Source: Nitrospirales bacterium (GTDB taxonomy: Bacteria; Nitrospirota; Nitrospiria; Nitrospirales; UBA8639). Taken from it: DNA of 64,000 nt. The notes beneath the pieces were generated by a model. It was not told where the DNA came from. It did no database searches and was given only the letters and a program-made list of their open reading frames with translations. The position numbers and the translations under genes were made by a program. Positions 4,223 to 59,825 of the stretch are shown piece by piece; within the stretch, counting starts at the first letter, position 1, and every line of letters begins with the position of its first letter. Location of the stretch: positions 3,008,001 to 3,072,000 of the forward strand of contig OY820905.2 of the NCBI GenBank assembly GCA_963555755.3. Reading direction: 5' to 3'.

Positions 4223-5509
<1,287 letters not shown>

Positions 5510-16662: not shown

Positions 16663-18691
16663 GTGCGACCAGGCAAGGCTGGTCTGATGGGAAAGGAGGC
16701 TGCGATGACTCTTTGAAAATCAGTTCATGGTCCAGTGGGTGCAAAACCCACCCAACCAAAGCGGAGCCCGGCAGGGTGGTAGCAAGCCTTGCGCCAGCGC
16801 GGGTAACCGTTATGGCGATGCGTAGGCATGCGAGCGTATGGGCCGCAGGAAATGCAGCCTCGAAAAGTGGAATATCCTGGATGTCTAGGGGCTCGGAATC
16901 TCTGAAGACCACGGCGTCGTCGCCGGTATGGGGCAAGGCGGCGGGGCATCCGGCGGGGTGAACGACTGGGGCACGTACGAAGAGGATGATCCAGGAACCT
17001 GGGAGGCCCTCATTTCTCCCTGGGAGATACCCGGTGCCACGGGGACCCGGTGACCACTCTCCGACGAACACGCGGACGCGGGTGCCTGCGTGACTCGGTG
17101 TAGAACAAGCACTCGCCTCAGGGTAGGCCGACGGCAAGGGGAACCGGAGCTGCGGCTGAGGGGGATGAGGGAGTCGGAGGGCGGCATAGGAGCGACAACG
17201 TCGGGGAACGGGGTGGTGCCTGGACCCGACCGAGCAAAGGCTGCCCGTGTTGATAGGAACGTCAGGAGGGAACCATGACCAAGGCATTGATGTGGGATTC
17301 CATGTCACCGGAACGTTTGACGGTAGCGGAACGAGCGAAACGGGAACCCGAAGGACGATGTCACGCCATGGCCCATCTCATCGATGTGCCAGCTCTGACA
17401 CGCGCCTACCGACGACTCCGCAGGAATGCCGCGGTAGGTGTGGATGGTATCACCAAGGAGCAGTATGGGCAGGAGCTGGAGCGGAATCTCCAGGATCTGC
17501 ATCACCGGCTGAAGACGAAGCGGTATCGTCATCAACCGATTCTCCGGGGATATGTGCCAAAGGGGCAGGGTCGGCACAGGCCGATTGGGATATCGGCGAC
17601 AGAGGACAAAGTGGTCCAAGGGGCGCTGCGGGACGTATGGGAGGCCATATACGAGACGGAGGTTACCGATAGCTCGTATGGGTTTCGACCGAAACGCGGT
17701 GCGCATGACGCGCTTCGGACTTTGAACCGAGCGGGGCATGGTGGGGAAATGAACTGGATCGTGGAGGCGGACATCGTCTCGTACTTTGACAGCGTGGATC
17801 GCACCAAGCTGAAGGAGATGATTCAGAAACGGGTCGCCGATGGGGCGCTCATGCGGCTCATTGGCAAATGCTTGAATGTGGGCGTGCTGGACGGCGAGGG
17901 GTATTCCGAGCCGGACGTGGGCACGGCCCAAGGATCGGTCCTCTCCCCGCTCCTCGGGAACATCTACCTCCATTACGTGCTCGATCTCTGGGTAGAATCC
18001 GAAGTGAAGCCACACCTCCGGGGGAAGTGCATCTTCGTCCGGTATTGTGATGACTTCATCTTTGGTTTCGAATGCCAGGACGATGCGGAGTGGGTGATGC
18101 TGCTGCTGGGAAAGCGGATGGGAACATATGGACTGACCCTGCATCCGGACAAGACTCGCCTGTTGTACTTTGGGCGACCGTTCAAGGGGCAGCAGGCAGG
18201 CAAGGGGCCGGCCAGTTTCGATTTCCTCGGGTTCACGCTGTAGTGGAAGCGGTCCCGATATGGACGCTGGATCTTGGCATTCAAGACCCGAGGTGCACGC
18301 CTCACGCGGGCCATTCGGTCTGTGTACGACCGGTGCCGACGCCATCGGCACCGGTCGGTGAAGGAGCAGCACATGGCGCTCGTGAGGCACGTGCGCGGCC
18401 ACATGAACTATTTTGGCGTGAACGGGAATATCCGTAGCCTGCATCTTCTTCTGGTGCAGGTTCAACGTGCCTGGTTCAAGTGGCTTCGGCGTCGCAGCCA
18501 ACGGACGCGCCTCACGTGGGAGAGGTATCAGGACCTGTTACGGGACTTTCCTCTTCCCCGTCCACGGATCGTCGTCCAGATCTGGGGGCGGTAACCCGCG
18601 AGCCATATCAGCGGAGGAGCCGGATGGTCGAAATGTCCTTGTCCGGTTCTGGCGAGGGCCTCGGCTGGGTGACTGGCCGGGGCTACTCTAC
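16663..18691 (+). mobile_element. group II intron (class E/F-like)
   Basis: 5' GTGCG; DV GAGCCGGATGGTCGAAATGTCCTTGTCCGGTTC; ends ...GCTACTCTAC; internal RT. Confidence 0.9.
17302..18594 (+). pseudogene. group II intron RT/maturase with premature TAG
   Basis: AVGVDG, RPIGI, SYGFRP, AQGSVLSPLLGNIYL, YCDD, FDFLGF; TAG at 18241-18243, after which the frame continues through the maturase domain. Confidence 0.9.
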
Positions 18692-37130: not shown

Positions 37131-38219
37131 TCAGGCGTAGTATCGACCGAATCGATTCGCGAGGATGTCCGGGAGGGCAAAAGTTTCCTGTGTGATGAAA
37201 CCCTGGTAGCGATGAGGATCGGCGAATACGGAATCCACCACACTGCACAAAGCCGCGGCGGTTGTCACTTGAATCGCGGACCACAATCTTCCTGCGATGG
37301 TCTCTGGGTAAATCTTTTTCACGTAGTTTTCTTCCATTAATTCTCCCGCTTTCCTTCCCACGACAGATACGTAAATCAGCACCACATCCTGATAGATTTT
37401 GGGAATCGCATTCTCCAGAATATGCTTGAGATTTTCCCGTTGTGTGTTGAGTTTGAGATCATTCATGAGAAAGTGAATTTTTTCGCAATGGCCTGGGTAG
37501 CGGAGGGTTTTATAGTTCATCGTTTGGACTTTGCCTGAGTACGTATCCGCCAAGGTTCCCAGTCCTCCGGAGGTGTTAAACGCCTCGTATAATAGTCCAT
37601 CGACTTCGATGGTCTCATACCCTTCGAGCGGCATGAGCGTGGTCTTCAATCCATTTTCAATTCCATAGCACACGTTCCCGTATTCGTTAATCAGGCCGTC
37701 GGTTGACCAGGTCAGAGAGTATTTCAACACATTGCTGGGATTGATGGGCAGGGCGCCCACCCGCATCTTCACGGTTTCGAGTGTATCGAAATGGTGCATC
37801 AGTTCGTTGGCGACGATGCTGATGAATCCCGGCGCCAACCCGCATTGGGGGACAAAGGCTTTCTCGCTTCCCTGACTGATCTGTTCAATTCGTTCGGTGA
37901 CTTCAACATCTTCGGTTAAGTCGAAATAGTGAATGTTATTCTTACGGGCCACATCCGCAACCGTGGGATTGCAGTAGTAGGGAAGACTCGAAATTACGGC
38001 ATCGGGTTGATGCTCGTTCACATAGTGTTCGAGGGCTGCCCCGTTTGACGCATCGAGGACCGCATGGGTGATGGGCGCGGTTTGACTTGGAGCAGTCCTT
38101 TGCTGATTGGACTGAGTCTCGATGTCGCCAAGGTGAACCGTGTACTCTTCTGTCTCTGCCAGGAACGTTCCGATCAGCGAGCCGATTTTTCCGGCGCCTA
38201 AAATGAGGATGGTTGGCAT
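37131..38219 (-). CDS. saccharopine dehydrogenase / lysine 6-dehydrogenase family
   Basis: LGAGKIG, YFDLTED, CGLAPG, TWSTDGLINEY, YKTLRYPGH. Confidence 0.9.
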   Translation of the reverse strand: MPTILILGAGKIGSLIGTFLAETEEYTVHLGDIETQSNQQRTAPSQTAPITHAVLDASNGAALEHYVNEHQPDAVISSLPYYCNPTVADVARKNNIHYFDLTEDVEVTERIEQISQGSEKAFVPQCGLAPGFISIVANELMHHFDTLETVKMRVGALPINPSNVLKYSLTWSTDGLINEYGNVCYGIENGLKTTLMPLEGYETIEVDGLLYEAFNTSGGLGTLADTYSGKVQTMNYKTLRYPGHCEKIHFLMNDLKLNTQRENLKHILENAIPKIYQDVVLIYVSVVGRKAGELMEENYVKKIYPETIAGRLWSAIQVTTAAALCSVVDSVFADPHRYQGFITQETFALPDILANRFGRYYA

Positions 38220-38233
38220 AGGTTTCCCGCGTA

Positions 38234-38830
38234 TTAGATTTTTACAGTTGATTGCATCAGAGCATCGGCTTGAGGCGGTGAGAAGCCCTGATACCCTGCA
38301 TGACGTTCGATGAGTTCGAGGACAGAAAACGGTGCGCCCTCGACTTGTTCAGGGACACTGAAGATTTGCCGAATGACGTCCCCTTTTTCGCCTAAAATGG
38401 ATCCCGCAAAGTTGATGCCCTTGTGTTGAAGGCGGTGCATGGCGGCTTCGATGTCTTCTGCCAGAATCGCGATGTGGTGTAGGGTCTGATCCCCAAATTG
38501 ATCCACCCATCGTGGGATCACACTGGATGCCCCGCGATCATCGTCGTAGGCTTGGTCAACAAACAATGCCGGAAATCCTGGGGCTCGGTACACCTTGGCA
38601 TGCCAATCACTGTATTCCAAAGTCTCGGAGTAGGTATAGCCCAGTTCCAAAAACTCTTGGGCTCGCTGGTCGATATTGTGGGTTCGGATGGTGATATGGT
38701 CGACCACTGGCTTGACCCCAATGCCTGCCGCATCCAGGACATCCTTCGTGATTTGGGCGGCACGATTTCTGGACACATAGTCTTGAACATACGCCTCGAC
38801 ACGTTCTTCCAGTTTGGCCTTGTGGTCCAT
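38234..38830 (-). CDS. VOC-family protein
   Basis: DHITIRT, HHIAI, ELIERH..YQGF. Confidence 0.8.
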   Translation of the reverse strand: MDHKAKLEERVEAYVQDYVSRNRAAQITKDVLDAAGIGVKPVVDHITIRTHNIDQRAQEFLELGYTYSETLEYSDWHAKVYRAPGFPALFVDQAYDDDRGASSVIPRWVDQFGDQTLHHIAILAEDIEAAMHRLQHKGINFAGSILGEKGDVIRQIFSVPEQVEGAPFSVLELIERHAGYQGFSPPQADALMQSTVKI

Positions 38831-38846
38831 GGCATTCACCTTGTGA

Positions 38847-40337
38847 TCAATGGGTATCGATTTGTGCCCGCTGCAATTGCCCACTATAGTCCACGTAAAT
38901 GGATTTCCACTCACTAAAAGTATCCAAAGCCGCCTGCCCGGCTTCACGGTGCCCGTTGCCGGTGTTCTTAATTCCTCCGAACGGGAGATGCACCTCGCTG
39001 CCAATCGTTCCAGCATTGATATAGACAATCCCCGACCGCAGCTCCCGCATGGCGTGTTGGGCTCGATTAATGTCTTGAGTGTAGAGTGAACTAGACAGTC
39101 CGTATTCCACGGAGTTGTTCACCTTGATGGCTTCTTCGAAGCTGTTGACTTCGAGCACGCTCAACACCGGACCAAAAATTTCTTCCGTGGCAATGCGCAT
39201 TGTTGGGGTGACATTGTCGAATAGGGTCGGTGCAAAGAAATATCCCGCTGCATACGGTCCCTTGGTTAAGGGGTGCCCTCCCGTCCTCAATTGCGCCCCT
39301 TCCTGTACCCCAACTTGAACCAGTTCGTGCACGCGTTCGAGTTGTGTGTTATTGATCAACGGTCCAATATCAATAGAAGAATCGAGACCATCGCCAACTC
39401 GGAGCTTGGCCATTCTATCTAGCAACATCGACACCATTTGTTCTTTCACGGCGGCGTGGACAATCAGTCGGCTGCACGCGGTACAACGTTGGCCGGTTGT
39501 GCCAAAGGCACTCCAGAGAATTCCCTCAACCGCTAACTCCAGGTCAGCATCTTCCATGACAATGATGGCATTCTTGCCACCCATTTCCAGGGCGACCCGT
39601 TTGTAATGGGTGGCTGCATCAACCGCGACTTTTCCTCCAGTGGCCTTTGACCCAGTGAACGAAATAAGGGCGACGTCCGGATGTTTTACCAGGGTGGCGC
39701 CTAACTCAGGCGCACTGCCTGTGACCAAATTGATGACTCCGGGAGGCATGCCTGCTTCCTCCAGGGTCTTGACGAACAATGCAGCGGTATAGGGTGTATC
39801 TGGCGAAGGCTTCAACACGACGGTATTGCCCATCATCAATGCGGGAAAACTCTTCCACGAGGGAATGGCCATGGGGAAATTCCAAGGAGTTATCAATCCG
39901 ACGACGCCGAGAGGCTCCCGGATCGCGTACCCGGATTTATTCGGGAGCTCGGAGGGGGCAATATGTCCGAATTGCCGACGGCCTTCTCCGCCCATGTAGT
40001 ATGCCATATCGATGGCTTCTTGAATGTCGCCTCGACCCTCCATCAAGACTTTTCCCATTTCGCTTGTCAGGGCCCTGGCAAGTGTTTCCTTGTCATGAAA
40101 AAGCCGTTCAGCCACTCGAAATAACAATTCTCCGCGACGAGGGGCAGGCAAACGATGCCAGGATTCAAAGGCCTCTCGTGCGGCGGCCACTGCATCATTC
40201 ATGTCATCGGCATTGGAGTCCGCGCATTTGGCAATGAGATCCCCCGTTGCTGGATTTCGTGTTTCAAAGACCTTGCCCGATCGGGCCGGAATCCATTTCC
40301 CCGCAATAAAGTTGTGAATTGGATTTTCCATATTCAT
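38847..40337 (-). CDS. aldehyde dehydrogenase
   Basis: [28 protein letters not shown]. Confidence 0.95.
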
Positions 40338-40801
40338 TCCTCACGTGGTTAGGGAACAGGAAGCGTTGCGGGCCGTTCTTTTTTGAACCGTAAATTCTCA
40401 GTCAAGCTGTGTGGATCCAGCTACCAATCTTTCCCACACAAGACCTTTCGGTTCTTTCCCATTGGCTTCTTTAGTGAAGCTCTGGGCGTTGAAAGGATTT
40501 CAAAGCGACCAATCAACCTGTTATCGGTCCTCTCAAAAATGCGGGAGGAAATTCAACGTTTTTTGACGACACAAAACAGGGGCGGAAATTCGAATAAGGA
40601 AAAACCAAGAAAACAATGAATCTAAGGTGGGATAGGCATATTTCTCATTCCGGGAACATTGCTTTTGATTAGGAATGACGCCTTAATGATTAGGATACTC
40701 TCTCAGTCAGGCGGAGACAAGACCAATCTCGAAAGGGAATTGTATGGTGAGGGGGCTGCCAATCAGATGTCGTTGGGGAATCCTGAACTCCCTGTCTCCA
40801 A

Positions 40802-41164
40802 TTAATCACTGATGGCTTGCTGGACGGCAGAGATGATTTCTCCAAAATTGGGTGGCTTGAGTAATATGGCTCGGGCGCCTGCCTTCATCGCCATATCTTT
40901 TTCCTCCTCACTGATATCTCCGGTAAAAAAGATGACTGGAGGTTTCGGGTCGGGTTTTTGTGAATATCGTTTGAGGAATTCCACGCCATTGAGGACAGGC
41001 ATTTTGTTATCGGTAATAATCAAATCGAAGTGTTGTTGCTCAAGCAATTTCAAGGCGGCGGCTCCATGTTCCGCTTCATCACACTCATACCCTTGGGATT
41101 CTAGGACCGCACGGAGGGTACTTCTCACTGCGGCTTCATCATCGACTAATAATACTCGTTCCAT
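40802..41164 (-). CDS. single-domain response regulator
   Basis: VLLVDD, TDNKMP, KP. Confidence 0.9.
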   Translation of the reverse strand: MERVLLVDDEAAVRSTLRAVLESQGYECDEAEHGAAALKLLEQQHFDLIITDNKMPVLNGVEFLKRYSQKPDPKPPVIFFTGDISEEEKDMAMKAGARAILLKPPNFGEIISAVQQAISD

Positions 41165-41535
41165 GGTACCTATAGCACTCCAATCGTCGTAGGAAATCCT
41201 CTATCGGTGAATACCGTGGCCCATTCTCCTATGAAACCCCTAGGTACCGTCAATCACCCGAAAGAGGGGGGGGTAGTGGAAATTTATTTTGTTAGTCCCG
41301 ATTCGTCGAGGAAAATTAGGCGGTTTGAAGGAAAGGAAAAGTGATAAAAGTGTTGATTATTAAGACGTTTCGTGGGAATGGACAAACACGAGCAAGAAAG
41401 TGAAAGCAGGAATCTTAAGATGACACCAAGGTTGATGCGAAGTCCTATCTACTGAAAACGACGTAGGAGGCGGTATAAGGAAATTGTCGTAGACCAGACG
41501 AATCAGGAAAAATTGAGCGTAGTGGGAGTGTCTTG

Positions 41536-42390
41536 CTAAGAAAACCGGCGTAAAGAACTAGCTAAACCGATGCGGGAAAGTCCGTAAATGAGCCATTTCG
41601 AAGGGTCAAAATTATACAATTTGGACCCGTTACGATAATCGCTTTGATACATGTGATGATAGTTATGATAGCCTTCACCAAAGGTGATGAGCGAGACCCA
41701 CCAACTATCCCGGCTCGAATCAGAAGTTCCATGGGGTTGGTCACCCCAGAGGTGGCAGATGGAATTAATGCAAAATGTGGAATTTAAGACGAAAAACGTT
41801 CGGCCCACTCCAGCCAAAAGAAAGCAGCCGAGACCACCAACCCATCCATTGTAAAGAAAGCCGACGATAAACGGAAAAGCCAATCCGGACAGGATTATCG
41901 GGACATAGTAGCGATGTTGCCACATGACAACTCGGTCCTGCTTGAGTCGGGAAGCGTATTTATCGTCCTTATGGGGATCACGTAAAAACAACCAACCGCA
42001 ATGACTATGCCAAAATCCCCATTGGGCGTTGTAGGGGTCTTCATCCTGATCACAACGGGCATGATGTCGAATATGATCAGCTGCCCATTTATACCCTGAG
42101 TTTTGGAGCGCCCATCCCCCGCCAATCAAGAGAATCACTTTGACCCAGTCGGGACAGGCAAAACTTCTGTGAGCGAGGAGTCGGTGGTAGCCGACGGTAA
42201 TTCCCAATCCCGTGAACATATAGAGGACGGCGAACATCGTCCAATCTAACCAGGAATAATCGTAAAAATAAGCATACGTGGGGAGACCAATGGCAGCCCC
42301 AATGGCGATCAGAAGAAATAAGATTGTTGTTGTATTGTCAGCCGCCCGCGTGTGGGTGCTATCAATGGTGTGATGCGTGGTGGTGGTCAT
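41536..42390 (-). CDS. delta-9-type fatty acid desaturase
   Basis: His boxes HRLLAH, HIRHH, HNYHH. Confidence 0.93.
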   Translation of the reverse strand: MTTTTHHTIDSTHTRAADNTTTILFLLIAIGAAIGLPTYAYFYDYSWLDWTMFAVLYMFTGLGITVGYHRLLAHRSFACPDWVKVILLIGGGWALQNSGYKWAADHIRHHARCDQDEDPYNAQWGFWHSHCGWLFLRDPHKDDKYASRLKQDRVVMWQHRYYVPIILSGLAFPFIVGFLYNGWVGGLGCFLLAGVGRTFFVLNSTFCINSICHLWGDQPHGTSDSSRDSWWVSLITFGEGYHNYHHMYQSDYRNGSKLYNFDPSKWLIYGLSRIGLASSLRRFS

Positions 42391-42810
42391 GTATCTGAAT
42401 AGTTTGATGTTTTCAAGAAGGCGATACTGCTTAACCCCAAAGTCTTACTCAGAGTATCGACATATTTCCCAATTCACTAGACTTTATCGGGGTCTAACAC
42501 AGTTCGTAAACATGAGGACTCTCCAGGTTACCCTTCTTTTGATGGATTGTAAAGACCAAAAAAGCATATTTTCGCATATTTTCATGTACATGAAAGGGCT
42601 ATGGGCTTTTGTGAAACAGGAGGTATGATGCGGAAGGGGGTGGAAAGAGTGGCTATCGCCTCCCGTTTCCCGTCTTATGCCTGACGATTATTTAAGCAGA
42701 GCGAAAGGTGCGCATTCTCGAAACTCTTTCAGGTCCAAGGCCTGTCTTTCTTTAAAGACGGAAGGATGCCAGCTGTATCATCATTCGGTCTTTCATAAAC
42801 ACAAGGCCAG

Positions 42811-43086
42811 TTAATAACCACCGGAGGGTCGATTTCGTTCTTTGGGGCGCGCCTCGTTGACTACTAGATTCCGACCTTGAAAGTCCGAGTCGTGTAACGC
42901 TGTGATGGCCTGTTGGGCCTCCTCGGCGCTGCCCATTTCGACAAACCCAAATCCTCTCGATCGTCCGGAATATCGATCGGTGACCACATTGGCCGATTGC
43001 ACTGTTCCATGGGTCGCGAACAAGTCTTGAAGTTCCTGATCTGTTGTGGAATACGGCAGATTGCCCACATAAATCTTTTGATTCAC
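42811..43086 (-). CDS. RRM RNA-binding protein
   Basis: KIYVGNL, RGFGFVEM, VNEARP; GGAGG followed by GTG start. Confidence 0.93.
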   Translation of the reverse strand: MNQKIYVGNLPYSTTDQELQDLFATHGTVQSANVVTDRYSGRSRGFGFVEMGSAEEAQQAITALHDSDFQGRNLVVNEARPKERNRPSGGY

Positions 43087-43437
43087 CACTACCTCCATCG
43101 AAGAGTGATATTGTCTAGAGAGGTAGGAAAGAGAAAGAAAGGGTCGACGAGGAAGAGCGGGCAGGCTGCATAACCTCTTCTTTGGGCTCACGCTTTCCGA
43201 ACTGCGTCCTTCTCACCAGGCAACATTCGTTCTGGGCCCCTTCCCGCTTGGCTCAACATCGCAAGGCCCATTGGCGATGCATTGCCATTTCAGCCTAGCA
43301 CCAGTTGTTTCTAAGATCAACTGAGTTGCGAAGCCCAAACCGATTTCTTGGGCGTCACATTCCAACCCCTTCAAGAATCCTTTTCGAACAGGGGGAACCG
43401 GAGGTGAACGATGATTGGCTATTGAATGTGTAGGTCA

Positions 43438-45585
43438 TCAAAACGAAAAGGCCATCTGAACAGGATCGTGAGAAACTGGAATGGGCAAGGTGATGAGGAA
43501 GGTTGTCCCTTGGTCGACCTGGCTACTGACCTCAATGGTTCCGCCGTGAGCCTGAATGATTTGATGGGCGATGGCGAGACCAAGTCCTGTCCCTTCGTGT
43601 TCTTGGCTTTCGTGTTTTGTGGTAAAAAACGGATCGAAAATATGCTCGAGTTCCTTGGGCCCGATACCGTGACCTGAATCGGAAATTTCTATTTGAGCCC
43701 AGGAGCCACCGGTCGTATTGATGACGGAATAGGTGCGGACGGATACAGTTGGGATTCCGCCATCCATGGCCTCAAGCGCGTTAAAAAACATATTCAGAAA
43801 TACTTGCTGGAGTTGTTGCCGATCCAGGCGAAGCGAGGGCAGATCGGTCGCAAAATCTTTATTAATCCGGATCTGCTTGTCACCGGCTTTGACCTTAGTA
43901 GCGTAAAGGCATGCATCAATAATGCTATGGATGTCTTCTTCTAAAAATTGGGGAATCGGATGATGGGAGTAATTGAGGACTTCCTGACAGAGCCGTTCAA
44001 TACGCATCACATCATCGGTCACAATGCGGCCAAAATTCTGGATAAACTCGTGATCGCTCATGCGGTGAGGGGCGAGATGCACAAACGTTTTGATGGAGGT
44101 CAGTGGGTTTCGAATTTCGTGCGCAAATCCGCCAGCCATAATTTCCAGGGAGCGCAGTTGATTGTTCCGTTGGATCAACAGTTGGGATTGTTTCACCTCC
44201 GCATAGAGCAGGGCATTCTCCAAGGCAATGGCGGCATTTCGACCGAGCGACGATAATAATTGTAAATCTTCGGCAGAATAGCCGATGTCTGTGTGGCGCG
44301 GGCCAAGCATGCAAAATCCAATGAGTTGATGGTGCCTATTCAAAAACGGCAAACACACATCCACCTCGAGGGCTGTGAGTTGTTGCACCAATGGTCCAGG
44401 GTGGCCGTGCGTTTCCAAGTCCTCCAATTCATCCCGAACCAGAGGTTCCTGGTGTTGGCGAAGTCGAACAGCAAGGGAGTGGGTCAACCCAAATCGATGT
44501 GAGGACCCGCCCAGGTTGTTGGCGGGAGTCACGGGTCCATACAGGTTTTTCTGTTTGTCCCAAATATACAGCGTCGCATGACGAATAGACATGACCTGTC
44601 TGAGGGTTCCAGTGATTTCTTTGGTTAACGTACGGAAGTCAAGAATGCTGACCAAGGCCTTGGAAAATTCAGAAAGCGTCGTGGTCATTTCGTACCGTTC
44701 TCTAAAGAGTTTTCGCCCGATGGCTTCTTCGGCACGTGTTTTAATGGTGTAGGATCCAAGGACCAGAAAATGAAAAATCACCAACATCGTGGCAGAAAAG
44801 GGATAACTAATTGACCCAAAGTATAGGTGTTGGGCCCACAGCAAGACTCCAAAGGCGGGAACCGCCGCGACGAAGAACAGCGTGAGATAGGAAAGCCCCC
44901 TTTCCAACACGATCGACGTATCCATCAAACGGTATTTCACGATGGCGTAGGCCATGATGATGGGATATACCGGGATGACAAAGTGTCCCCAGGGGTACAC
45001 GTCGATGCCAAAGAGAGAGAGAAAATCGAGCGATCCACCGGCATATCCGATGGTGGTAGCGATGAAGAAATATTTGATCTGGGTTCGTCTGACATCGGAA
45101 CTACGTCGAAAGGCCTGCCCCAGAAGAATGTGGCTATATACGGTCAGCCCCAACCACCCAAGTGTAAAGAATGTGAACAGTAGAGGGCCTGGGACGGCGT
45201 AATAAAAAGAAGAAAACGCGAAACGGACACCTGAGAAAAAATGATTCGACGTTAGAATCAGGGGAACAGAGAGTCCACCAAGGGCATAGGAGACAATTAA
45301 AAGCCGCGGGTGTGTCGTGTCGGAAAAGACACAGGTGAAATGAAAAAATAAAATCGGAATCCAAATCACGCTGACGGCGAATGCCAGGCGCCAAGCGAGC
45401 AGGGCTTTCACGGGGTCGGTTTCCAGAGCAATCCAGATGGATCCTAGACCCCACAGGGCAACAGAGACGGTAAAGGCGAGCCAGAGTTGGTTTAAGCGAC
45501 GAGACGGGTTTCGAGAAAATACAAAAAACCCAAACACCAAAGAACTGATACTTGTGAGAAGTCCTGCAAGCGCAAAGGCATTCAT
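43438..45585 (-). CDS. 7TM (HisKA_7TM-like) GAF sensor histidine kinase
   Basis: Many N-terminal TM helices, GAF-like segment, AHEIRNPL, GTGLGL. Confidence 0.9.
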   Translation of the reverse strand: MNAFALAGLLTSISSLVFGFFVFSRNPSRRLNQLWLAFTVSVALWGLGSIWIALETDPVKALLAWRLAFAVSVIWIPILFFHFTCVFSDTTHPRLLIVSYALGGLSVPLILTSNHFFSGVRFAFSSFYYAVPGPLLFTFFTLGWLGLTVYSHILLGQAFRRSSDVRRTQIKYFFIATTIGYAGGSLDFLSLFGIDVYPWGHFVIPVYPIIMAYAIVKYRLMDTSIVLERGLSYLTLFFVAAVPAFGVLLWAQHLYFGSISYPFSATMLVIFHFLVLGSYTIKTRAEEAIGRKLFRERYEMTTTLSEFSKALVSILDFRTLTKEITGTLRQVMSIRHATLYIWDKQKNLYGPVTPANNLGGSSHRFGLTHSLAVRLRQHQEPLVRDELEDLETHGHPGPLVQQLTALEVDVCLPFLNRHHQLIGFCMLGPRHTDIGYSAEDLQLLSSLGRNAAIALENALLYAEVKQSQLLIQRNNQLRSLEIMAGGFAHEIRNPLTSIKTFVHLAPHRMSDHEFIQNFGRIVTDDVMRIERLCQEVLNYSHHPIPQFLEEDIHSIIDACLYATKVKAGDKQIRINKDFATDLPSLRLDRQQLQQVFLNMFFNALEAMDGGIPTVSVRTYSVINTTGGSWAQIEISDSGHGIGPKELEHIFDPFFTTKHESQEHEGTGLGLAIAHQIIQAHGGTIEVSSQVDQGTTFLITLPIPVSHDPVQMAFSF

Positions 45586-45662
45586 AATGGGGCTGTTGAA
45601 TAATTAGAAATTTCTATATTACCGTTCGCATATGACTGTTCAATGAAACCTCAAAAGCAACA

Positions 45663-45926
45663 GGGGATGTTCAAAAAGGTGCGCTCAGCCAGATGGTCTC
45701 CAGGCTTCCCATCTGACTTTCCCAGGGGCTCTGCCCCTAGGACGGCCCAAACAGCAGGGCCTGTGACCCCTCGAAGGGGGAACACCCCCTTCGAACATCT
45801 CCCCCCGAGTGGTACTGACTACTCGGTGTGCAAGGCCGCAGGCGCTTTGGCGCGCGGAGCGTACTCATAGTACGTGAGCACGACAAAGGGCCGAGAACGC
45901 CGCTGACGCCCTTTTTCAACATTCCC
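45663..45926. repeat. GTTGAAAAA-family MITE with internal insertion
   Basis: TIRs plus shared core CAAGGCCGCAGG...GTACGTGAGCACG. Confidence 0.75.
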
Positions 45927-46179
45927 ATAATCAGAATCCTGAGTCCATTGGATTCAGGGCAAGGGTGCCCAGTACAACCCTAACATTATGATCAAAAGCT
46001 GTTCATGACACAATTGCTTTTCTCTGATGGGGGGGATCCTGTCGAGAAAGGGGGAAGAGAAGGGAAAGGGAGGAGAAGATACACTCAGGATTGGTGGCCA
46101 ACAGTTTGGGAGGTGTGGAATCGTGAGCCCCCGAACTTTGTATAGGCTCGGGGCCTCACAGACCCTGGGCAATGACTTA

Positions 46180-46325
46180 GGGGCCTGTTCAAAAATGTCC
46201 GTCCAGCAAGGCCGCAGGCCCGTTGGCGCGCGGAACGTACGCAGAGTACGTGAGCACGGCAACGGGCCGAAAACGCCGCTGGGACCCTTCGGAAAGACTC
46301 AGGGCATGTTTTTTCAACAGGCCCC
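46180..46325. repeat. GTTGAAAAA-family MITE, TTA TSD, inserted at the stop codon of the undA-like gene
   Basis: GGGGCCTGTTCAAAAA / TTTTTCAACAGGCCCC. Confidence 0.8.
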
Positions 46326-48191
46326 TTATGCCACGTAAGCTGAACAGTGATCGACCGACAAGTCAATGGGGGAAAACTTGCGATAGCAGGCCTCCAGCGC
46401 GATATGAAAATATTCCATACTGCGTTTGGCGGCCTGGATCACTTTGGGTTGTTCGTGCTCGGAATGGGTCGTCTGAATGATGATCTCCAGGGCTTCCAAG
46501 GCATGCGTTTCATCATAGCGTGCATGATTTTTCATGGATCATGCAGAATTTAGGGTTCTGGCAGCACAATACGATCAGGTGCACATAAATTTATGGCACT
46601 CCTCGTGGGTTATGTCGCCTCTCCTTTTGAGCGAATGGCGTCGTCTTGTATTGTTAGGTAGCTGCAGCATCTCATGCTGCCTCTTCCTGGCGTCATAGCC
46701 CCTTGGTCCGTGGGAAGAGGGCACGATACGATCGTGCAGCTAGTGCGCCTGTGAAGGCGTTTGATCAGGAGGGTGCAAGTCCCTCTCAGGCGAACGTTAC
46801 CAGCCTGAAGTCGACAGTGGTCACTGCGTTTCCGTGAGGAAGGGTGGAGAGCAATCTGAGACGAACGACCAGTCCGTAACGAAAGTGAACTCGATTCGGC
46901 CAAGCCTGTCGGGGAGGCTCCTAGCGATGTCCGAACCCTTGATCGCGCGACGGCAGATCCCTTCGACCTGAGAGTCTGCCCGGGGGATAGACGCGGCAAG
47001 TCACGGCGGTGACGTAACGTGGGAAAGCGACCGTGGCGAAATGGCAAGGTGGTGGTTGGAGATGGAATGGTCGGAAGGTCAAACGAGCTAAGCAGGGAGA
47101 TCTGTCGGGTGAAGGACGTGGACGACGTGTCGTGACCATTCGCAGTGGGGGACGCTGCGTGATCAATGGCCCAGGCCCCTCGGTGCCGTATCGCGTGCCG
47201 CAGGGGAACGAACGAAGCGATGCCGATGACGTTGGATGAAGCGGCTCGACAGAAGTCAGAGCTCTCATAATAGCTGGGAAGCCGTGCAGCATAACGCGGT
47301 GGAGCAAAGGGGAGCAGGAAGGTAGATGTGAAATGACTAAACCGCCGACACGTCGAGCCTCGACCACGCGTCGAGATTACATCCCAGTCACAGTGCCGTT
47401 TTCGGCTACCCCGGCTGGGGAGCTTCCTGGGATCGACCAGTGGGCTCATCGAGCGGTTTGGACAGATCGCATGGTGGCGACACTGATGGCAGACAACGTG
47501 AGAGGAGGCAAATGGCACACGTTGATGGATAAGGTGTCTGGCAGCCTGAACCTGTCCTGCTCGGCCAAGAAGGTCCTGGGCAAGAACGGGGCTGCGGGCG
47601 TTGACCGGCAAACGTGTTCGGAGTTCGCCGAGCATGAGCGGGCGGAACTCGATCGGTTGCAAGCCGAACTGGGTGACGGAACCTATCGTCCGGCAGCGGT
47701 GCGGCGGCGGTGGATTCCCAAACCCGACAGGTCGGCGAAGCGCCCGTTGGGAATTCCGACCGTGCGGGATCGCGTCGTGCAAACGGCAGTGGTCCACGTG
47801 CTTGAGCCGATTATGGACGCCATGTTCCATGCGCGAAGCTGCGGCTGTCGCCACGGACGCGGGTGCCATGATGCCCTGCGGTGCGTCGAGGAATGGCTCG
47901 ACGCCGGGTATGTGTATGTTGTCGACGCGGATGTGCAGGAGTACTACGAGACGATTCCGAAAGATCGACTGGTGGCCAGAGTGCAACAGAAGATCTCGGA
48001 TCGCCGTGTGGTGGGCCTGGTGAAGAAGTGTCTGAACCAGGGGATTCTGGAAGAACTGCGGGAGTGGACGCCGGAAGCCGGTGGGCCGCAAGGCGCGGTG
48101 CTGTCTCCCATGCTGTCGAATGTCTATCTCAACCCCCTGGACCATCGGATGTCCGATCTCGGATTTCAGATGGTGCGCTACGCGGATGACT

Positions 48192-50060
48192 GTGCGCCAC
48201 GAAGGCGCACAAAAGGACGTCAGTCCTTTGTGCAGCCATGCTGCACAAGAGATGAGGGGAGGCCCCTCGAAGTCGCTGTACAGGCGGAGGCTTCAAACCA
48301 CCCATGGCTGCTGCCTTTAAGAGAGGTGGTGGTGAGCGCAATGGGAAAAGGCAGGGCAAGACCCTGTCAGGTATGGACCGTCGAGTCGAACGTGAGTGAA
48401 CCGCTGAGGACGTGTCGAAAGCGTAGGGATGACGTCAAAACCGGGGGGGGATCGTTACTCCGGGAGGAATCTGGCGGGCACCTGGTTACTGGCCAGATGG
48501 CGTCCGGCATGAAGGCGGCGAGAAGGCGGTCCAGGCTCTTGTGGAGAACGTGGGAACCTGTCACCCCGATGCGAAGGGAGAAACGCAAGTGGAGGTCCCA
48601 CAAGCGTGAGAGTACCGAGGCGGGGTACAGGGGCGGAGCAACTCGTAGTAGTGAAGAAGGTTCTGTAATGGAGCTGGAGCGAAGGGGTTGCCTTATCGGG
48701 CTTGAGGGAAGAGAGCAACCAGCGATGGGAGGACTTTCGTGACTCAGGCCAAGCCATTTCCCATTACCCAACGTCAGGTGTGGGAAGCCTACAAACGAGT
48801 GAAAGCCAATCAGGGTGGGGCTGGGGTGGATGGCCAGACGGTGGCGGACTTTGAGCAGAGGTTGGACAACAACCTCTATAAGCTCTGGAACCGGATGGCC
48901 TCTGGGAGTTATCGGCCCCTGCCGGTCAAGCGGGTGGAGATTCCCAAGGCAGGCGGCGGCAGCCGTCCGTTGGGGATCCCGACCGTGGCAGACCGGATTG
49001 CGCAAACAGTGGTCAAACAGGCCCTGGAACCGGAAGTGGAAGCCCACTTTCACCCGGATTCCTATGGCTACCGACCGGGGAAATCAGCGCATCAAGCGAT
49101 TGGGCAGGCGCGCAGGCGGTGTTGGCGCTATGACTGGGTGGTGGACCTTGACATCAAAGGGTTCTTCGACACCATCGACCATGACCGGCTGCTGGCCATG
49201 GTGCGTCGGCATACCCAAGCTACGTGGGTGCTGCTCTATATCGAGCGATGGTTGAAAGCTCCGGAGCAAGTGTTGGACGGGACGGTGCGGGAGCGGACCC
49301 GAGGCACGCCGCAAGGGGGTGTCGTCAGTCCGTTGCTGGCGAACCTGTTTCTGCATTATGTCTTCGATGCGTGGATGAGGCGGTACTATCCGCACATCCC
49401 GTTTGAGCGGTATGCCGACGATGGGGTGTGTCACTGTCGCACCCGGAAACAGGCCGAACATCTGAAAGGGGCGTTAGCGCGGCGCTTTGCGGATTGGGGG
49501 CTTGAACTCCATTCGGAGAAGACCCAGATTGTATACTGCAAAGATGCCGATCGGCGTCTGGGGTATCCAATCACCGCCTTCGACTTCTTGGGCTACACGT
49601 TTCGCCCACGGCGGTCGAAGAACCGGTGGGGGAAATACTTCATCAACTTCAGTCCGGCCATCAGTAATAAGGCGGGGAAGGCGATCCGCCAGGTCGTGCG
49701 GAGCTGGCAGCTCCATCTGCGGAGCGATAAAGCGCTCGACGATCTGGCGCGGATGTTCAATGCGAAGATACGCGGGTGGGTGACCTATTACAGTGCCTTC
49801 TACCAATCGGCGTTGTACCGGTCCCTCCGGCACATCGATCGCAAACTTGTGCTGTGGGCCACTCGCAAGTTCAAGCGGCTGCGAGGCCACAAACGGCGAG
49901 CCGATCAGTGGTTGCGACGCATTGCGTGTCGGCAGCCCAATCTGTTTGCTCACTGGCGGTTGGTGTATGGACAGGCTAGATAAGAAGAGCCGGATGAGCG
50001 GAGACGTTCACGTCCGGTTCTGTGAGCGCCTCGAGGGGTGGTTCCTCGGGGCGACTCGAC
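48192..50060 (+). mobile_element. group II intron class D (inner, twintron)
   Basis: 5' GTGCGCC; DV GAGCCGGATGAGCGGAGACGTTCACGTCCGGTTC; ends GCGACTCGAC. Confidence 0.92.
48739..49983 (+). CDS. ltrA: group II intron RT/maturase, RmInt1-like, no endonuclease domain
   Basis: KPFPI..VWEAYKRVKAN.GGAGVDG, TPQGGVVSPLLAN, ERYADD; ORF intact. Confidence 0.93.
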   Translation: MTQAKPFPITQRQVWEAYKRVKANQGGAGVDGQTVADFEQRLDNNLYKLWNRMASGSYRPLPVKRVEIPKAGGGSRPLGIPTVADRIAQTVVKQALEPEVEAHFHPDSYGYRPGKSAHQAIGQARRRCWRYDWVVDLDIKGFFDTIDHDRLLAMVRRHTQATWVLLYIERWLKAPEQVLDGTVRERTRGTPQGGVVSPLLANLFLHYVFDAWMRRYYPHIPFERYADDGVCHCRTRKQAEHLKGALARRFADWGLELHSEKTQIVYCKDADRRLGYPITAFDFLGYTFRPRRSKNRWGKYFINFSPAISNKAGKAIRQVVRSWQLHLRSDKALDDLARMFNAKIRGWVTYYSAFYQSALYRSLRHIDRKLVLWATRKFKRLRGHKRRADQWLRRIACRQPNLFAHWRLVYGQAR

Positions 50061-50589
50061 TTGTCATCCTGTGTCGCACGCTGGAAGAAGCCGAAGCGGC
50101 GCTGGCCGAGGTGCGCCGGTGGGTGGAGGCCAATGGGCTGACACTGCATCCCGAGAAAACACACATCGTGGACTCGCGGGAGAAGAGCTTTTCGTTTCTG
50201 GGCTATTCGTTCCGAGGCCGGCTGCGGTTTCCACGAGCGAAGAGCCACCGAAAGTTCATCGCCCGCATCCGCGAGCTGACGCCGCAGAAATCGGGCGACT
50301 CGCTGGCGGTAATTCTCCACCGGCTCACTCGCTCGACGCAAGGGTGGTTCAACTACTTTCGGCACTGTTTTTGGAACATCTTCAAGGCCTACGATGGAAT
50401 GATCCGTCGGCGGTTGCGCCGGATGCTTCTGAAAAGGAACCGAAGGAATCGACAACGCCTCGCACGCAATCAACGGTGGCCGAACGCCTTCTTTGCGGAT
50501 CATGGGTTCACGAGCCTGAATGATGCCCATATTCGTTTCGTCCACTCCATAGGAACCTACTGACTGGAGAGCCGTATGCGGGAGAACTG

Positions 50590-52450
50590 CAAGCCGTTCA
50601 CTTAATCTGTTGACACAAACCAGCAAACAGACATAAACAGCGCTTGTTTGCTGGCTTTCTTGTTTTGGATCATGCAGAAAAAATCTTCCGCAACTTCTAC
50701 GCTGAAGCACCCTCGGATACCGCTCGAGTACGGTGGCTTCCAGATCAACCACTGCAAGTCTCCGGTCTGCTCGAACTACGGCGTTCCGCCAGAACAAACA
50801 TCGGTGCGTGGAAAAAATAGCTACACTCTGGATTCACGCAACCAAGGCATTTCATCCTGTATCTGCACGTCCTGCGGCGAAGGATTCCCTCTCAAGAGCA
50901 ACCTCGGCATCGCAGAAGAAGTCGAGCGCATGTCGGCCTACCTGTCGCCTCGTGAGATGGCGTTCTGCCGTAACGATGCCTGTACCAACCATACCGGTCA
51001 GGTGCCCGTAGGTACCGCTGGGGCATATGCCTCGTTCGGCAAGACCGCGATTGGCAGCCCCCGCTGGCGCGGTAGCGTCTGCGGTACGACGTTCTCACAG
51101 AACACCAAGGCCACCGCCCGGCAGCGGGAACATCACAAGAACAAGACCATTTTCAAACTGCTGGTCAACAAGCTGCCCGTGCGCCGAATCATCGAAGTCG
51201 CCGACATCCACCCCAAGACCTTCTACCACCGCCTCGACTTCCTCCATCGCCAGTGCCAATCATTTGCCGCCCACCGCGAGCACGCCCTATCCACCCTCCC
51301 CATTCGGCGACTGTACCTCGGCGTGGACCGGCAGGACGACCTTGTGAACTGGATGGTTCGCAAGGACAAGCGCAACATTCAGCTATCGGCCATTGCATCA
51401 GTGGACAACGAACACGGTTACGGCTTCGGTGTCCACCTTCACTTCGACCCTTCTCTGGACAGCGAAGCTGTCCAAGCCGAAGTCGAGAAGAGCGGCGACC
51501 TTGGCATGCCCTATCCGCATCGTCGCGTTGCACGTCTGTGGCTCAATGCAGACCATGAGCGAGCCAGTGCCAAATCCCTACGCACTTCGCGGCGCAAACC
51601 CGGACTGCCAACGCAGATCGATGAAGCCTATGCCGCAGCATTGATGCGTGACGATATCGAAAGCCCCGATGCGCCGTCGCCCGTAGAACGACTTCCTGAA
51701 TACGGGATGCCAACCCATGGCGAGTACACCATGTCTGGGCATTTTTTCTTCCTCAAACGCCTGCTGGGCAATGTCCAAAAGTGGCGCTTCTTTATCGACC
51801 AAGACCCTGGACTGCGAGCCGCGTGCCTATCGGCGTTCCACGACGAGATCCGAGGCCGCACGGCGGAGGCCTTCTCTGTTCGCATCACCAAAGATCTGAC
51901 GGTGGACGAAACGCGTCAAAAATACAACGAAGCGACGATGCTGTTCGTGCACGCAGAGCTCGCGCACCCAAAGATGAAGCCGCAGGAGGTCAAGTTGCTG
52001 CTGATCAAAGAGCGTCTGGCCTGTATGACGCCGCACGGGAAGTGGCAGGATCGGTGGCTTGACCATCCTTTCCCGACCATGAGCGAGCCAGAGAAGACAG
52101 TGGCCTCCCTCACCAATCTGGGCGACTACGACGAAGACCACAAAGCTTGGCTCTACAACAAAGCGAGCGTGCATGGTGTCGATTCGTTCTTCAACCAAGT
52201 GCGTCGACGGCTCTCCCTGCTGGAGCGTCCGATCCATTCCAAATCCAACAATGGTCGGATATGGAACGGATATTCTCCATATAACCCGGGTAATGTTGCA
52301 AAAGTACTCGACATCATGCGCACGGTGCATAACTACATCCTGACCGGCAAGGATGGCAAGACGCCAGCTGTGCGACTTGGATTGGCCCAAGCGCCGCTGG
52401 ACTACGAAGCCATTATTTATTTTGCATCAACAGATTAAGTGAACGGCTTG
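50590..52450 (+). mobile_element. unclassified insertion sequence
   Basis: 24-bp perfect TIR CAAGCCGTTCACTTAATCTGTTGA; 9-bp TSD GGAGAACTG at 50581-50589 and 52451-52459. Confidence 0.92.
50672..52438 (+). CDS. putative transposase (Cys-rich N-terminus, HTH, acidic core; IS1/IS1595-like)
   Basis: Only long sense ORF in the element; CxxxxC/CxxC clusters, C-terminal HNY...KTPAVRLGL; stop codon lies in the right TIR. Confidence 0.75.
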   Translation: MQKKSSATSTLKHPRIPLEYGGFQINHCKSPVCSNYGVPPEQTSVRGKNSYTLDSRNQGISSCICTSCGEGFPLKSNLGIAEEVERMSAYLSPREMAFCRNDACTNHTGQVPVGTAGAYASFGKTAIGSPRWRGSVCGTTFSQNTKATARQREHHKNKTIFKLLVNKLPVRRIIEVADIHPKTFYHRLDFLHRQCQSFAAHREHALSTLPIRRLYLGVDRQDDLVNWMVRKDKRNIQLSAIASVDNEHGYGFGVHLHFDPSLDSEAVQAEVEKSGDLGMPYPHRRVARLWLNADHERASAKSLRTSRRKPGLPTQIDEAYAAALMRDDIESPDAPSPVERLPEYGMPTHGEYTMSGHFFFLKRLLGNVQKWRFFIDQDPGLRAACLSAFHDEIRGRTAEAFSVRITKDLTVDETRQKYNEATMLFVHAELAHPKMKPQEVKLLLIKERLACMTPHGKWQDRWLDHPFPTMSEPEKTVASLTNLGDYDEDHKAWLYNKASVHGVDSFFNQVRRRLSLLERPIHSKSNNGRIWNGYSPYNPGNVAKVLDIMRTVHNYILTGKDGKTPAVRLGLAQAPLDYEAIIYFASTD

Positions 52451-53517
52451 GGAGAACTGCACGTACGGTTCGGAGGGAGGGGGAGCGCAACTCAATGCGC
52501 CCTCCCTACCCCTATCACAAGAAAGAAAGCTCACAGGAAGCAACGCCATGGCCAAGAAACTCCATGTGGCCAGAATTGGATGGCGGTAGGATAGAACCAT
52601 ATATTCTGTATGATCCTTTTTCATCCAGGCGTACGCGCGCTTTGTTAAATGGATCCCGTCCCGACCGTCATATTTGGGAAATCCTTCCAATACCGCACGG
52701 GCAATTCCTTGGGTGGTGCCCTCGATGGCATAGGTCATGGCACCCATGCTTTCCGCCAGGGATCCGCGCAAATTAATGGACCACATGTAATGCGTGAGGG
52801 CCTCCACTTCGGGAAGAACCGGGAAGTCATGCAGCTCTTCACGAGTGATACCAAAGGCGTCGGTCATGTCCATCCACTGCTTCGCATGCCATTTTTCCAC
52901 CCGAACGTTGTCGATGAGAATCTCCCGGGCAAAGGCCTCCTGGGCTTTCGCAATATTCAAGGCAATCCATTGAGGAAAGGTTTCGATGAAGGGATACAGT
53001 TGCATCAACCACCCGCGCATTTGTTCAAGGGACAGGGTCCCCTGGGATGTTTCTTTCACCAGGGGGCAATTGAAGATACGTTGCTGATAGGGGTCCGTTT
53101 CATTGTTCAGATGAACAATCCATGGCGGATGTGGGGAAAATGATGGCCGTTTGCTCCCAGACACCTCGGTGAACCGGCTGGCTTGATGGGGAAAGGTCAG
53201 TAGCTGTGACATGTCATCCTCCCTGACGAACGAATTTTTTTTAATAAAGATAAGCCCCCTTCTGACAGCTTATTGACACTATCGCAAAACCGTTGCCAGG
53301 CAAATTTTACCCATCACGGGCTTGATTTTCACCCATAACGGGGACGACGACTGACAGTATTCACAATATTTTCAATTGGTTCTAGAGTGGATTAGAAGAC
53401 TACGATCAGATGGGCTGAAACGGAGATGGGTTGATCGCTGGCGTCAGAAAGTTGACAGGTGTTGAAAAGATTGACGACAGCGATCTTCCGATTGTAAGGG
53501 CCCGGGGATGTCTCACC

Positions 53518-59702: not shown

Positions 59703-59825
59703 GGGGAAGGTTGAAAAAGGGCGTCCAGCAAGGCCGCAGGGCTTTGGGCGCGCGGAGCGTACACGCAGTACGTGAGCACGCCAAAAGCCCGAGAACGCAG
59801 CTGGCGGTCTTTTTCAACCTTCCCC
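59703..59825. repeat. GTTGAAAAA-family MITE
   Basis: GGGGAAGGTTGAAAAAG / CTTTTTCAACCTTCCCC. Confidence 0.8.

Follow-up and report, generated by a model that had tools for sequence, protein, structure and literature searches.

A split UndA-like gene and an intact sensor kinase

We analyzed a 64,000-nt stretch (hereafter, the window) of contig OY820905.2 from a Nitrospirales bacterium, in which a gene for an UndA-like diiron enzyme, interrupted by nested mobile elements, lies upstream of a gene for a membrane sensor kinase with an N-terminal seven-transmembrane (7TM) domain. The 5′ part of the enzyme gene (52617..53212, minus strand) encodes residues 1–198, including E106, H109, E164, and W196, and the 3′ part (46326..46527, minus strand) encodes residues 199–265, including A242 and the iron ligands H200, D204, and H207. 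The insert between them measures 6081 bp (46536–52616), has 14-bp terminal inverted repeats, and is bracketed by the 8-bp duplication ATGAAAAA (minus strand) at 52624–52617 and 46535–46528. Reading across it yields an in-frame gene of 798 nt that encodes 265 amino acids (aa) and ends in its only stop; the rejoined product and P0001, an intact database protein of 265 aa, differ at four residues. The claim of an earlier note on this DNA, that removing the insertion leaves an intact UndA-like gene, was thus confirmed. Moreover, contigs from three of four marine-sediment sequencing runs join 46527 straight to 52617, with 198–203 letters on the shorter side, and an unbroken allele therefore exists in nature. 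Pieces from runs X1 and X5, which may stem from the source sample, cross from the gene into the miniature inverted-repeat transposable element (MITE) of the insert by 28–29 nt, under the 31-letter bar. The note had also held the gene to be invisible among the open reading frames (ORFs) because it is split. Split it is, but a 261-aa minus-strand ORF (52427–53212) covers its 198 upstream residues before reading 63 residues into the insert, and those 198 residues match TENA_THI-4 and Haem_oxygenas_2.

The kinase gene (43438..45585, minus strand) is intact. Its 715-aa product, the candidate receptor, comprises a HisKA_7TM domain (about 44896–45585), two further transmembrane helices, and GAF, HisKA, and HATPase domains; the N-terminus scores 41 bits against HisKA_7TM (PF16927; cut-off 28.6), and the H, N, G1, F, and G2 boxes are visible. 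A model of the 7TM domain (pLDDT 89.8) aligned to G-protein-coupled receptors (GPCRs), best to ADGRL3 (Z 16.9, 209 residues, rmsd 3.6), the 50 listed rows being GPCR-fold chains; Foldseek returned just weak GPCR matches (best E 5e-4). The sensor thus models as GPCR-like, a common fold in itself showing no function. Enzyme stop (46326) and kinase start (45585) are 740 bp apart, as the earlier note had estimated. This gap, 241–247 bp in four close relatives and 372 bp in a fifth, is widened here by two copies (45830–45926 and 46206–46302, together spanning 45830..46302) of a ~97-nt genome-wide repeat, one of which is missing from the sediment contigs. The repeat has more than 300 BLAST matches in the genome, and a third copy in the window lies at 59728–59824.

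Among solved structures, P0001 is closest to 3OQL (E 3e-34) and UndA (4WWJ/6P5Q, 1e-29), with CADD at 3e-11. The top seven Foldseek matches of its model (pLDDT 86.8) are all UndA or 3OQL, at TMq 0.76–0.77 and 31–33% identity. The protein scores below the curated cut-offs for CADD (64.5 vs 200 bits) and TenA (32 vs 130), and no PqqC match was obtained at E ≤ 0.001. Sequence ranking, fold ranking, and family cut-offs therefore agree with the earlier assignment to UndA rather than to TenA, PqqC, or CADD. E106, H109, E164, H200, D204, and H207, together with W196, align to the three-histidine/three-carboxylate ligands and Trp190 of UndA, and none of these seven residues varies among 77 sequences (25 from Nitrospirota and 52 from a sister clade). 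The UndA residue numbers other than W190 were counted along the alignment; the ligand motif and W190 itself are given in PMC13108848.

Phe239 of UndA aligns to A242, and Ala occupies this position in 24/25 Nitrospirota and 52/52 sister-clade sequences, so that the Phe239 pocket floor is absent. According to the accessible text of PMC6361979, the UndA F239A variant shifts in substrate range from C10–C14 to C16–C18. Given the Ala at this position, the product is likely longer-chain, a lead only because other pocket positions are bulkier. The medium-chain, volatile product that the earlier note had in mind becomes doubtful, since Ala replaces the residue that limits UndA to C10–C14. Among 1033 candidates screened for fusions with P0001 that exceed 465 aa, none was found, a weak negative, as one locus (L052) holds a 536-aa ORF. 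Two further HDO-fold proteins of this genome (L290:2824-3606 and L291:2958-3752) give weak CADD and BesC matches, below both cut-offs.

Conserved linkage and exchange of sensor domains

Across 151 genomes of the order, the enzyme was matched in 18 and reached at least 51% identity in 11, the source genome included. In the ten other genomes at that level, a 7TM-GAF kinase lies directly downstream in nine and a contig edge intervenes in one. A scan of genome contigs, from which the best 80 of 118 enzyme loci were kept, gave 28 Nitrospirota-clade loci, overlapping with the matches from the 151-genome set, and 52 others. Within the 28, the kinase is adjacent at 23, the contig ends too soon at three, and the kinase is absent at two, so that enzyme and kinase adjoin at 23/25 assessable loci. 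The enzyme and 7TM coding regions are 30–757 bp apart, enzyme identities within the pairing range from about 46 to 95%, and the pairing is also found in divergent orientation (L057, L262, and L265–L267). An N-terminal PilZ domain is fused to the enzyme at 21/28 loci, and of the PilZ motifs, RxxxR is kept in 14/21 and D/NxSxxG in 13/21. A LuxD-like thioesterase-methyltransferase gene lies directly upstream of the enzyme at 5/28 loci. Two fast-evolving enzyme orthologs without a 7TM neighbor (L029, 9500-10294; L030, 9534-10370) have lost four and six of the six ligands, respectively.

A sigma-54-type promoter motif (GG-N10-GC) is predicted at 53284..53298 on the minus strand, 86 nt upstream of the enzyme gene. 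TGGCA-N7-TGC occurs upstream of 7/7 unfused orthologs, the window included, whereas its frequency in the genome predicts about 0.003 occurrences per 150 nt. A sigma-54 motif also precedes 16/24 LuxD-type genes, the loci with the motif being kin. At a score of at least 6 it precedes 0/20 PilZ-fused enzyme genes and none of the kinases, the starts being uncertain there. In some relatives, genes for sigma-54 activators come after the kinase gene. A scan of 40300–46600 for sigma-70 promoters and terminators yielded no more than shuffled sequences did.

The 52 loci of the sister clade, mostly from Betaproteobacteria and 36–43% identical to the enzyme, include no 7TM domain. A gene encoding a two-helix sensor with PAS, GGDEF, and EAL domains adjoins 43 of these enzymes, and five more show its tail at a contig edge. 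The cytoplasmic part of its product matches PA0861/RbdA (E 4e-220) and the periplasmic part of the RbdA ortholog found no match in the PDB, so that orthology is based on the cytoplasmic part. This RbdA-type sensor domain occurs at 0/28 Nitrospirota-clade loci vs 43/52 sister-clade loci. As stated in the available portion of PMC10614000, undA is always accompanied by rbdA in Pseudomonas, where 1-undecene is an airborne signal. UndA-family genes thus adjoin a sensor in several lineages, and the type of sensor varies. At three sister-clade loci (L081, L084, and L108), the enzyme stands beside a receiver-GAF-HisKA_3 kinase, not RbdA, a third sensor type, and L081 also has a LuxR-type regulator.

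From the receptor side, a 7TM-domain profile gave 119 domain matches in 62/151 genomes, and 59 kinase loci, hand-picked to span genera, were examined. The gene directly upstream encodes a LuxD-methyltransferase at 26, a PilZ-KAS III at two, a PilZ-HMG-CoA-reductase-like protein at two, and a PilZ-acyl-ACP-reductase-like protein at three; the others are a PilZ-ketosynthase (one), PilZ with an aldehyde-dehydrogenase fragment (one), HAD hydrolases (13, of which two were scanned, two further ones read, and the rest labeled by size and place), an insertion sequence (IS; one), other genes (eight), and contig edges (two). Another acyl-chain enzyme accordingly lies directly upstream at 35/57 assessable other kinase loci. 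PilZ fused to KAS III, HMG-CoA-reductase-like, acyl-ACP-reductase-like, or ketosynthase enzymes was seen before a 7TM kinase at L150, L186, L154, L157, L179, L206, L207, and L195.

A metagenome scan with the enzyme-type sensor retained 80 of 137 loci. At 320 bits or more (n = 56), the UndA-like enzyme was found at 50 loci, a contig edge at four, a probable chimera at one, and an HMG-CoA-reductase-like gene at one; below that cut (n = 24), the enzyme occurred at none and an HMG-CoA-reductase-like gene at 11. Linkage of UndA homologs with HisKA_7TM kinases, which the earlier note had proposed to check, is therefore conserved from both sides (23/25 and 50/56). One kinase with no enzyme upstream (L210) was considered as a loss and dropped, its upstream DNA matching another part of the genome across a repeat, which indicates a probably chimeric contig. 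At the metagenome loci L268, L272, L279, L280, L281, L283, and L288, 7TM domains of mixed type form arrays of four to seven. The source genome itself encodes a second 7TM-GAF kinase (L039:7850-12524; G000 C1:539849-544523). The gene directly before it is for a LuxD-like thioesterase-methyltransferase and has a sigma-54 motif of its own; the ATPase boxes of this kinase look degenerate, and it may depend on another kinase.

We then compared how the sensor and the kinase core vary with the upstream enzyme. In a quick tree of 99 7TM domains (pieces shorter than 520 nt excluded), all 23 first 7TM domains beside an UndA-like gene form one clade (SH-aLRT 98) with no other row inside, and the first domains of LuxD-type (the HAD-adjacent ones within), KAS, reductase, and AAR-type loci form separate groups. 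In contrast, among the second 7TM domains of tandem kinases the enzyme types are mixed, and they are interleaved in the kinase-core tree (69 cores, after exclusion of 13 truncated rows), a single clade of 16 enzyme-adjacent cores being rejected (p-AU 6e-6). Individual pairs follow the same pattern. Between an UndA-like locus (L060) and a LuxD locus (L169), identity is 81% in the core and 71% in the second 7TM domain vs 36% in the first. For L049/L155 the values are 88%, 76%, and 39%, the first domain of L049 being a frameshifted piece, and for L063/L154 they are 71%, 52%, and 48%. A correlation of enzyme and sensor distances (0.86; core 0.63; 15 loci) was not used as a test, as the pairs are not independent. 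The synthase-receptor pairing that the earlier note had suggested thus gains support from conserved linkage and from the joint exchange of enzyme and first 7TM domain, as far as sequence comparison can tell.

A candidate lipid-signal cassette and its alternatives

Taken together, these comparisons suggest, with a probability that we put at roughly 0.6, that enzyme and kinase make up a swappable lipid-signal synthase-receptor cassette in Nitrospirota. The UndA-family enzyme would decarboxylate a fatty acid to a 1-alkene, probably of longer chain in view of the Ala at the Phe239 position. The hydrophobic product would partition into membranes and bind the GPCR-like bundle of the first seven-helix domain of the kinase, which would then phosphorylate a receiver or a sigma-54 activator. 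The sigma-54 motif would let the response feed back on synthesis, and the PilZ-fused relatives would be gated by cyclic di-GMP (c-di-GMP) instead.

Several observations weigh against this reading. Lipid enzymes are missing upstream of 22/57 other kinases, two loci (L043 and L047) carry the enzyme without the kinase, and L261 pairs an enzyme-type sensor with an HMG-CoA-reductase-like gene. The metagenome loci include kin that are not independent, the 50 enzyme loci representing 31 distinct sensors at 90% identity, and the 320-bit cut was chosen after the gap (305 vs 333 bits) was visible. No cognate sigma-54 activator stands out among the 13 paralogs (40–51%) in the genome, nor is a cognate response regulator identifiable there. 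The pocket differs from that of UndA, whose Gly-Gly aligns to Q71-L72 and whose Phe239 aligns to A242, other positions being bulkier; substrate and reaction may therefore differ as well, identity being just 31–33%. Because the enzyme gene and the 5′ end of the kinase gene are immediate neighbors, a single recombination tract can carry both, and joint transfer can occur without a functional tie. Finally, co-variation cannot separate signaling between cells from sensing inside one membrane.

That last point leads to the strongest alternative, control of the membrane inside the cell, which we regard as unlikely. A long-chain alkene would stay in the membrane, and the kinase would read the state of the lipid or membrane and adjust expression of enzyme and desaturase in the manner of DesK/des systems, with no cell-to-cell signal. 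A242 does predict long-chain, poorly volatile products; products of UndA-F239A replaced membrane hydrocarbons in a cyanobacterium (PMC6361979, available part); and in the closest relatives the kinase gene is followed by genes for a desaturase and an Rbp-type RRM protein. However, unlike in DesK/des membrane-fluidity systems, the link to a desaturase is inconsistent: the gene is found at 4/28 Nitrospirota-clade and 3/56 receptor-side loci, all very close relatives, many contigs being short. Moreover, a sensor of a bulk property needs no replacement with each type of enzyme, yet the first 7TM domain is replaced.

Alternatively, the pairing could hold with other chemistry, which we find improbable: the enzyme would tailor or destroy a ligand, for example by oxidizing a fatty acid that the LuxD-type thioesterase sets free, and what the kinase senses would be the substrate or another product. 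The low identity to UndA and the changed pocket fit this account, as does the LuxD-methyltransferase gene just upstream at 5/28 loci, and HDO-fold enzymes catalyze many reactions (PMC13108848, available part). Against it, UndA is clearly the nearest solved relative in sequence and fold, the Trp190 equivalent is invariant, and the sister clade retains the RbdA neighbor of true undA genes. Mere hitch-hiking, in which enzyme and 7TM regions travel together by adjacency and the kinase senses something unrelated, would suit their separation of just 30–757 bp and the broken pairings at L261, L043, and L047. It becomes very unlikely in view of a pairing that spans enzymes of about 46–95% identity and recurs with five unrelated acyl-chain enzymes; it is weakened further because the pairing persists in divergent orientation and always involves acyl-chain enzymes. 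That the protein is a CADD-type para-aminobenzoate synthase, TenA, or PqqC without any lipid role is hardly credible, for although it matches Pfam TENA_THI-4 and some sources name its relatives ‘PqqC’, it scores below the family cut-offs, UndA ranks ahead in sequence and fold, and the neighbors scanned include no folate, thiamine, or pyrroloquinoline quinone genes.

The swappable synthase-receptor cassette can be extended into a bolder and more tentative picture, for which we would give somewhat less than even odds. Here, Nitrospirota would use a modular system of lipid ‘dialects’, in which a GPCR-fold receptor domain on a constant kinase chassis is exchanged along with its fatty-acyl enzyme, of which there are at least five unrelated kinds (makers of alkenes, esters, ketones, aldehydes, or alcohols). 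This locus would represent the alkene dialect, a long-chain 1-alkene would be the first HisKA_7TM ligand, and signal-negative listeners with an intact receptor would arise repeatedly in marine sediment populations.

A synthase beside a membrane kinase is a known kind of arrangement; here, the comparative evidence is strong and the chemistry is predicted. The locus resembles Pseudomonas UndA (4WWJ, 4WX0, 6P5Q; 3OQL) in the HDO fold, the ligand set, the Trp190 equivalent, and an adjacent membrane sensor gene. It departs from undA-rbdA in its 31–33% identity, in the Ala at Phe239, and in a HisKA_7TM-GAF kinase in place of the c-di-GMP enzyme RbdA, as do 21/28 relatives of the enzyme in their N-terminal PilZ domain. 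In CqsA-CqsS, LqsA-LqsS, PhcB-PhcS, and RpfF-RpfC, likewise, an enzyme for a fatty-acyl-derived small molecule is encoded beside a membrane histidine kinase. Unlike in those pairs, the enzyme here is a diiron decarboxylase, the sensor belongs to another family, the enzyme slot takes at least five unrelated enzymes, and the signal is predicted. Such synthase-kinase adjacency has been used to predict complete signaling systems in other families (PMC7567580; for PhcB, PMC10614000; both in the parts available).

Joint variation of signal gene and receptor also has a parallel in Bacillus comQXP, where the variable part is the N-terminal sensor of the receptor, and in staphylococcal agr. There, the signals are peptides and divergence proceeds by mutation inside a single family, whereas here enzymes of unrelated folds are exchanged whole along with the sensor. 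Co-variation of the signal-making gene and receptor of comQXP is described in the accessible part of PMC4408185. The 7TM-GAF-kinase layout further recalls PrsK (TIGR02916), although the kinase scores 143 bits against a PrsK cut-off of 300. A literature search of partial coverage, with few subscription papers and no supplements, found no description of an UndA-like/7TM-kinase pairing; the accessible portions of the papers found to name HisKA_7TM (PF16927) give no ligand for it, and the available part of the lipocone preprint contains nothing on an enzyme-7TM-kinase system.

If the cassette reading holds, the widespread sensor domain HisKA_7TM gains a candidate class of ligand, and UndA-type alkenes, for which a signaling role has been reported with no known receptor, gain a candidate receptor. 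It would also point to chemical communication independent of acyl-homoserine lactones in Nitrospirota, the phylum that holds the main nitrite oxidizers. This locus contributes the unfused, sigma-54-linked form of the enzyme gene and the exchange of RbdA for a 7TM sensor within the UndA family; it also provides natural null alleles and an enzyme with Ala where UndA has Phe239. Specificity is directly testable, since sequence data already supply enzyme-sensor pairs of both kinds, cognate and swapped.

The disrupted allele, the layers of the insert, and the remaining neighbors

The enzyme is, from its sequence, dead in this strain because the insert, which breaks the gene between K198 and N199, severs three of the six iron ligands (H200, D204, and H207) and cannot be spliced out. 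Splicing could not restore the gene, as both introns run antisense to it and their removal would leave the MITE in place. The strain would be signal-negative but could still listen, a state that most likely arose incidentally in a burst of mobile elements. As a natural synthase-null with an intact receptor, it offers a ready-made reporter background, provided that it can be cultured. Because the MITE breaks a reading frame of at least 150 aa at 7/15 scored sites, this one included (170/300 for random positions), and the genome has 34 loci resembling reverse transcriptase (RT) genes, the lesion needs no selective story. A second null allele does exist: in L211 and L213, ~98% identical to the locus, the enzyme gene carries the same one-base frameshift and the kinase is full-length, and this allele has five cluster members; the truncated members P0190, P0192, P0193, and P0201 may represent additional null alleles or simply end with their contigs. 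Nonetheless, a C-terminally aberrant kinase (P0217) and short desaturases are likewise listed, and with a broken kinase allele and the frame hits of the MITE, the signal-negative cheater proposed in the earlier note appears unlikely.

The insert consists of four layers: a MITE, an outer group II intron, an inner group II intron, and an IS. The 308-bp MITE, likely IS1595-related, contributes arms of 101 bp (52516..52616; target duplication 52617–52624) and 207 bp (46536..46742; target duplication 46528–46535). A 1520-bp element with similar ends encodes an IS1595 transposase, and the genome holds 25 MITE left ends, 15 of them with a perfect 8-bp duplication. Within the MITE lies the outer intron (46743..52515, plus strand, antisense to the enzyme gene), recognized by its GTGCG 5′ end and RT/GIIM matches; the inner intron interrupts its RT and the IS its domain V. 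The joint 46742>52516 is present in contigs of the sequencing runs. The 5′ part of this intron has four copies in the genome; the four share a target context, identical in three.

The inner intron (48192..50061, plus strand; Rfam RF01999, RF00029) sits directly after the YADD codons of the outer RT and encodes an intact 414-aa RT/maturase (48739–49983) that matches TIGR04416; the joint 48192>50062 was recovered in the sequencing-run data. Its three copies (window 48192-50061; G000 C1:6424 and 801411) all lie directly after the YADD codons of another RT. The 1861-bp IS (50590..52450, plus strand) has 30-bp inverted repeats, a 9-bp duplication, and a 596-aa transposase with no Pfam match and a weak IS1 match. 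Four IS copies (window 50590-52450; G000 C1:775532, 1024325, and 1251115) occupy the same position in intron domain V-like sequence, which suggests that the IS targets the catalytic helix of group II introns. Elsewhere in the window, a further group II intron with an RT lies at 16742–18243, and a tRNA followed by a phage-type integrase lies at 4223–5509.

Downstream of the kinase (HisKA_7TM/GAF/HisKA/HATPase), and like it on the minus strand as the earlier note described, lie genes for a small RRM (Rbp-type) protein (42811..43191; likely start near 43098), a membrane fatty-acid desaturase of the DesA/delta-9 type (41536..42390; FA_desaturase), and a stand-alone receiver domain (40802..41164), a possible phospho-acceptor. 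The note had counted all three as parts of the system, which was not borne out: the RRM gene is a local neighbor only, desaturase and receiver are linked in the closest relatives only, and the order enzyme-kinase-(RRM)-desaturase-receiver is confined to those relatives. The desaturase may supply unsaturated substrate locally, though it is no constant part. Beyond the receiver, genes for an aldehyde dehydrogenase, a glyoxalase-like protein, and a saccharopine-dehydrogenase-like protein stand in a row at 37131–40337, possibly as a lysine catabolic cluster.

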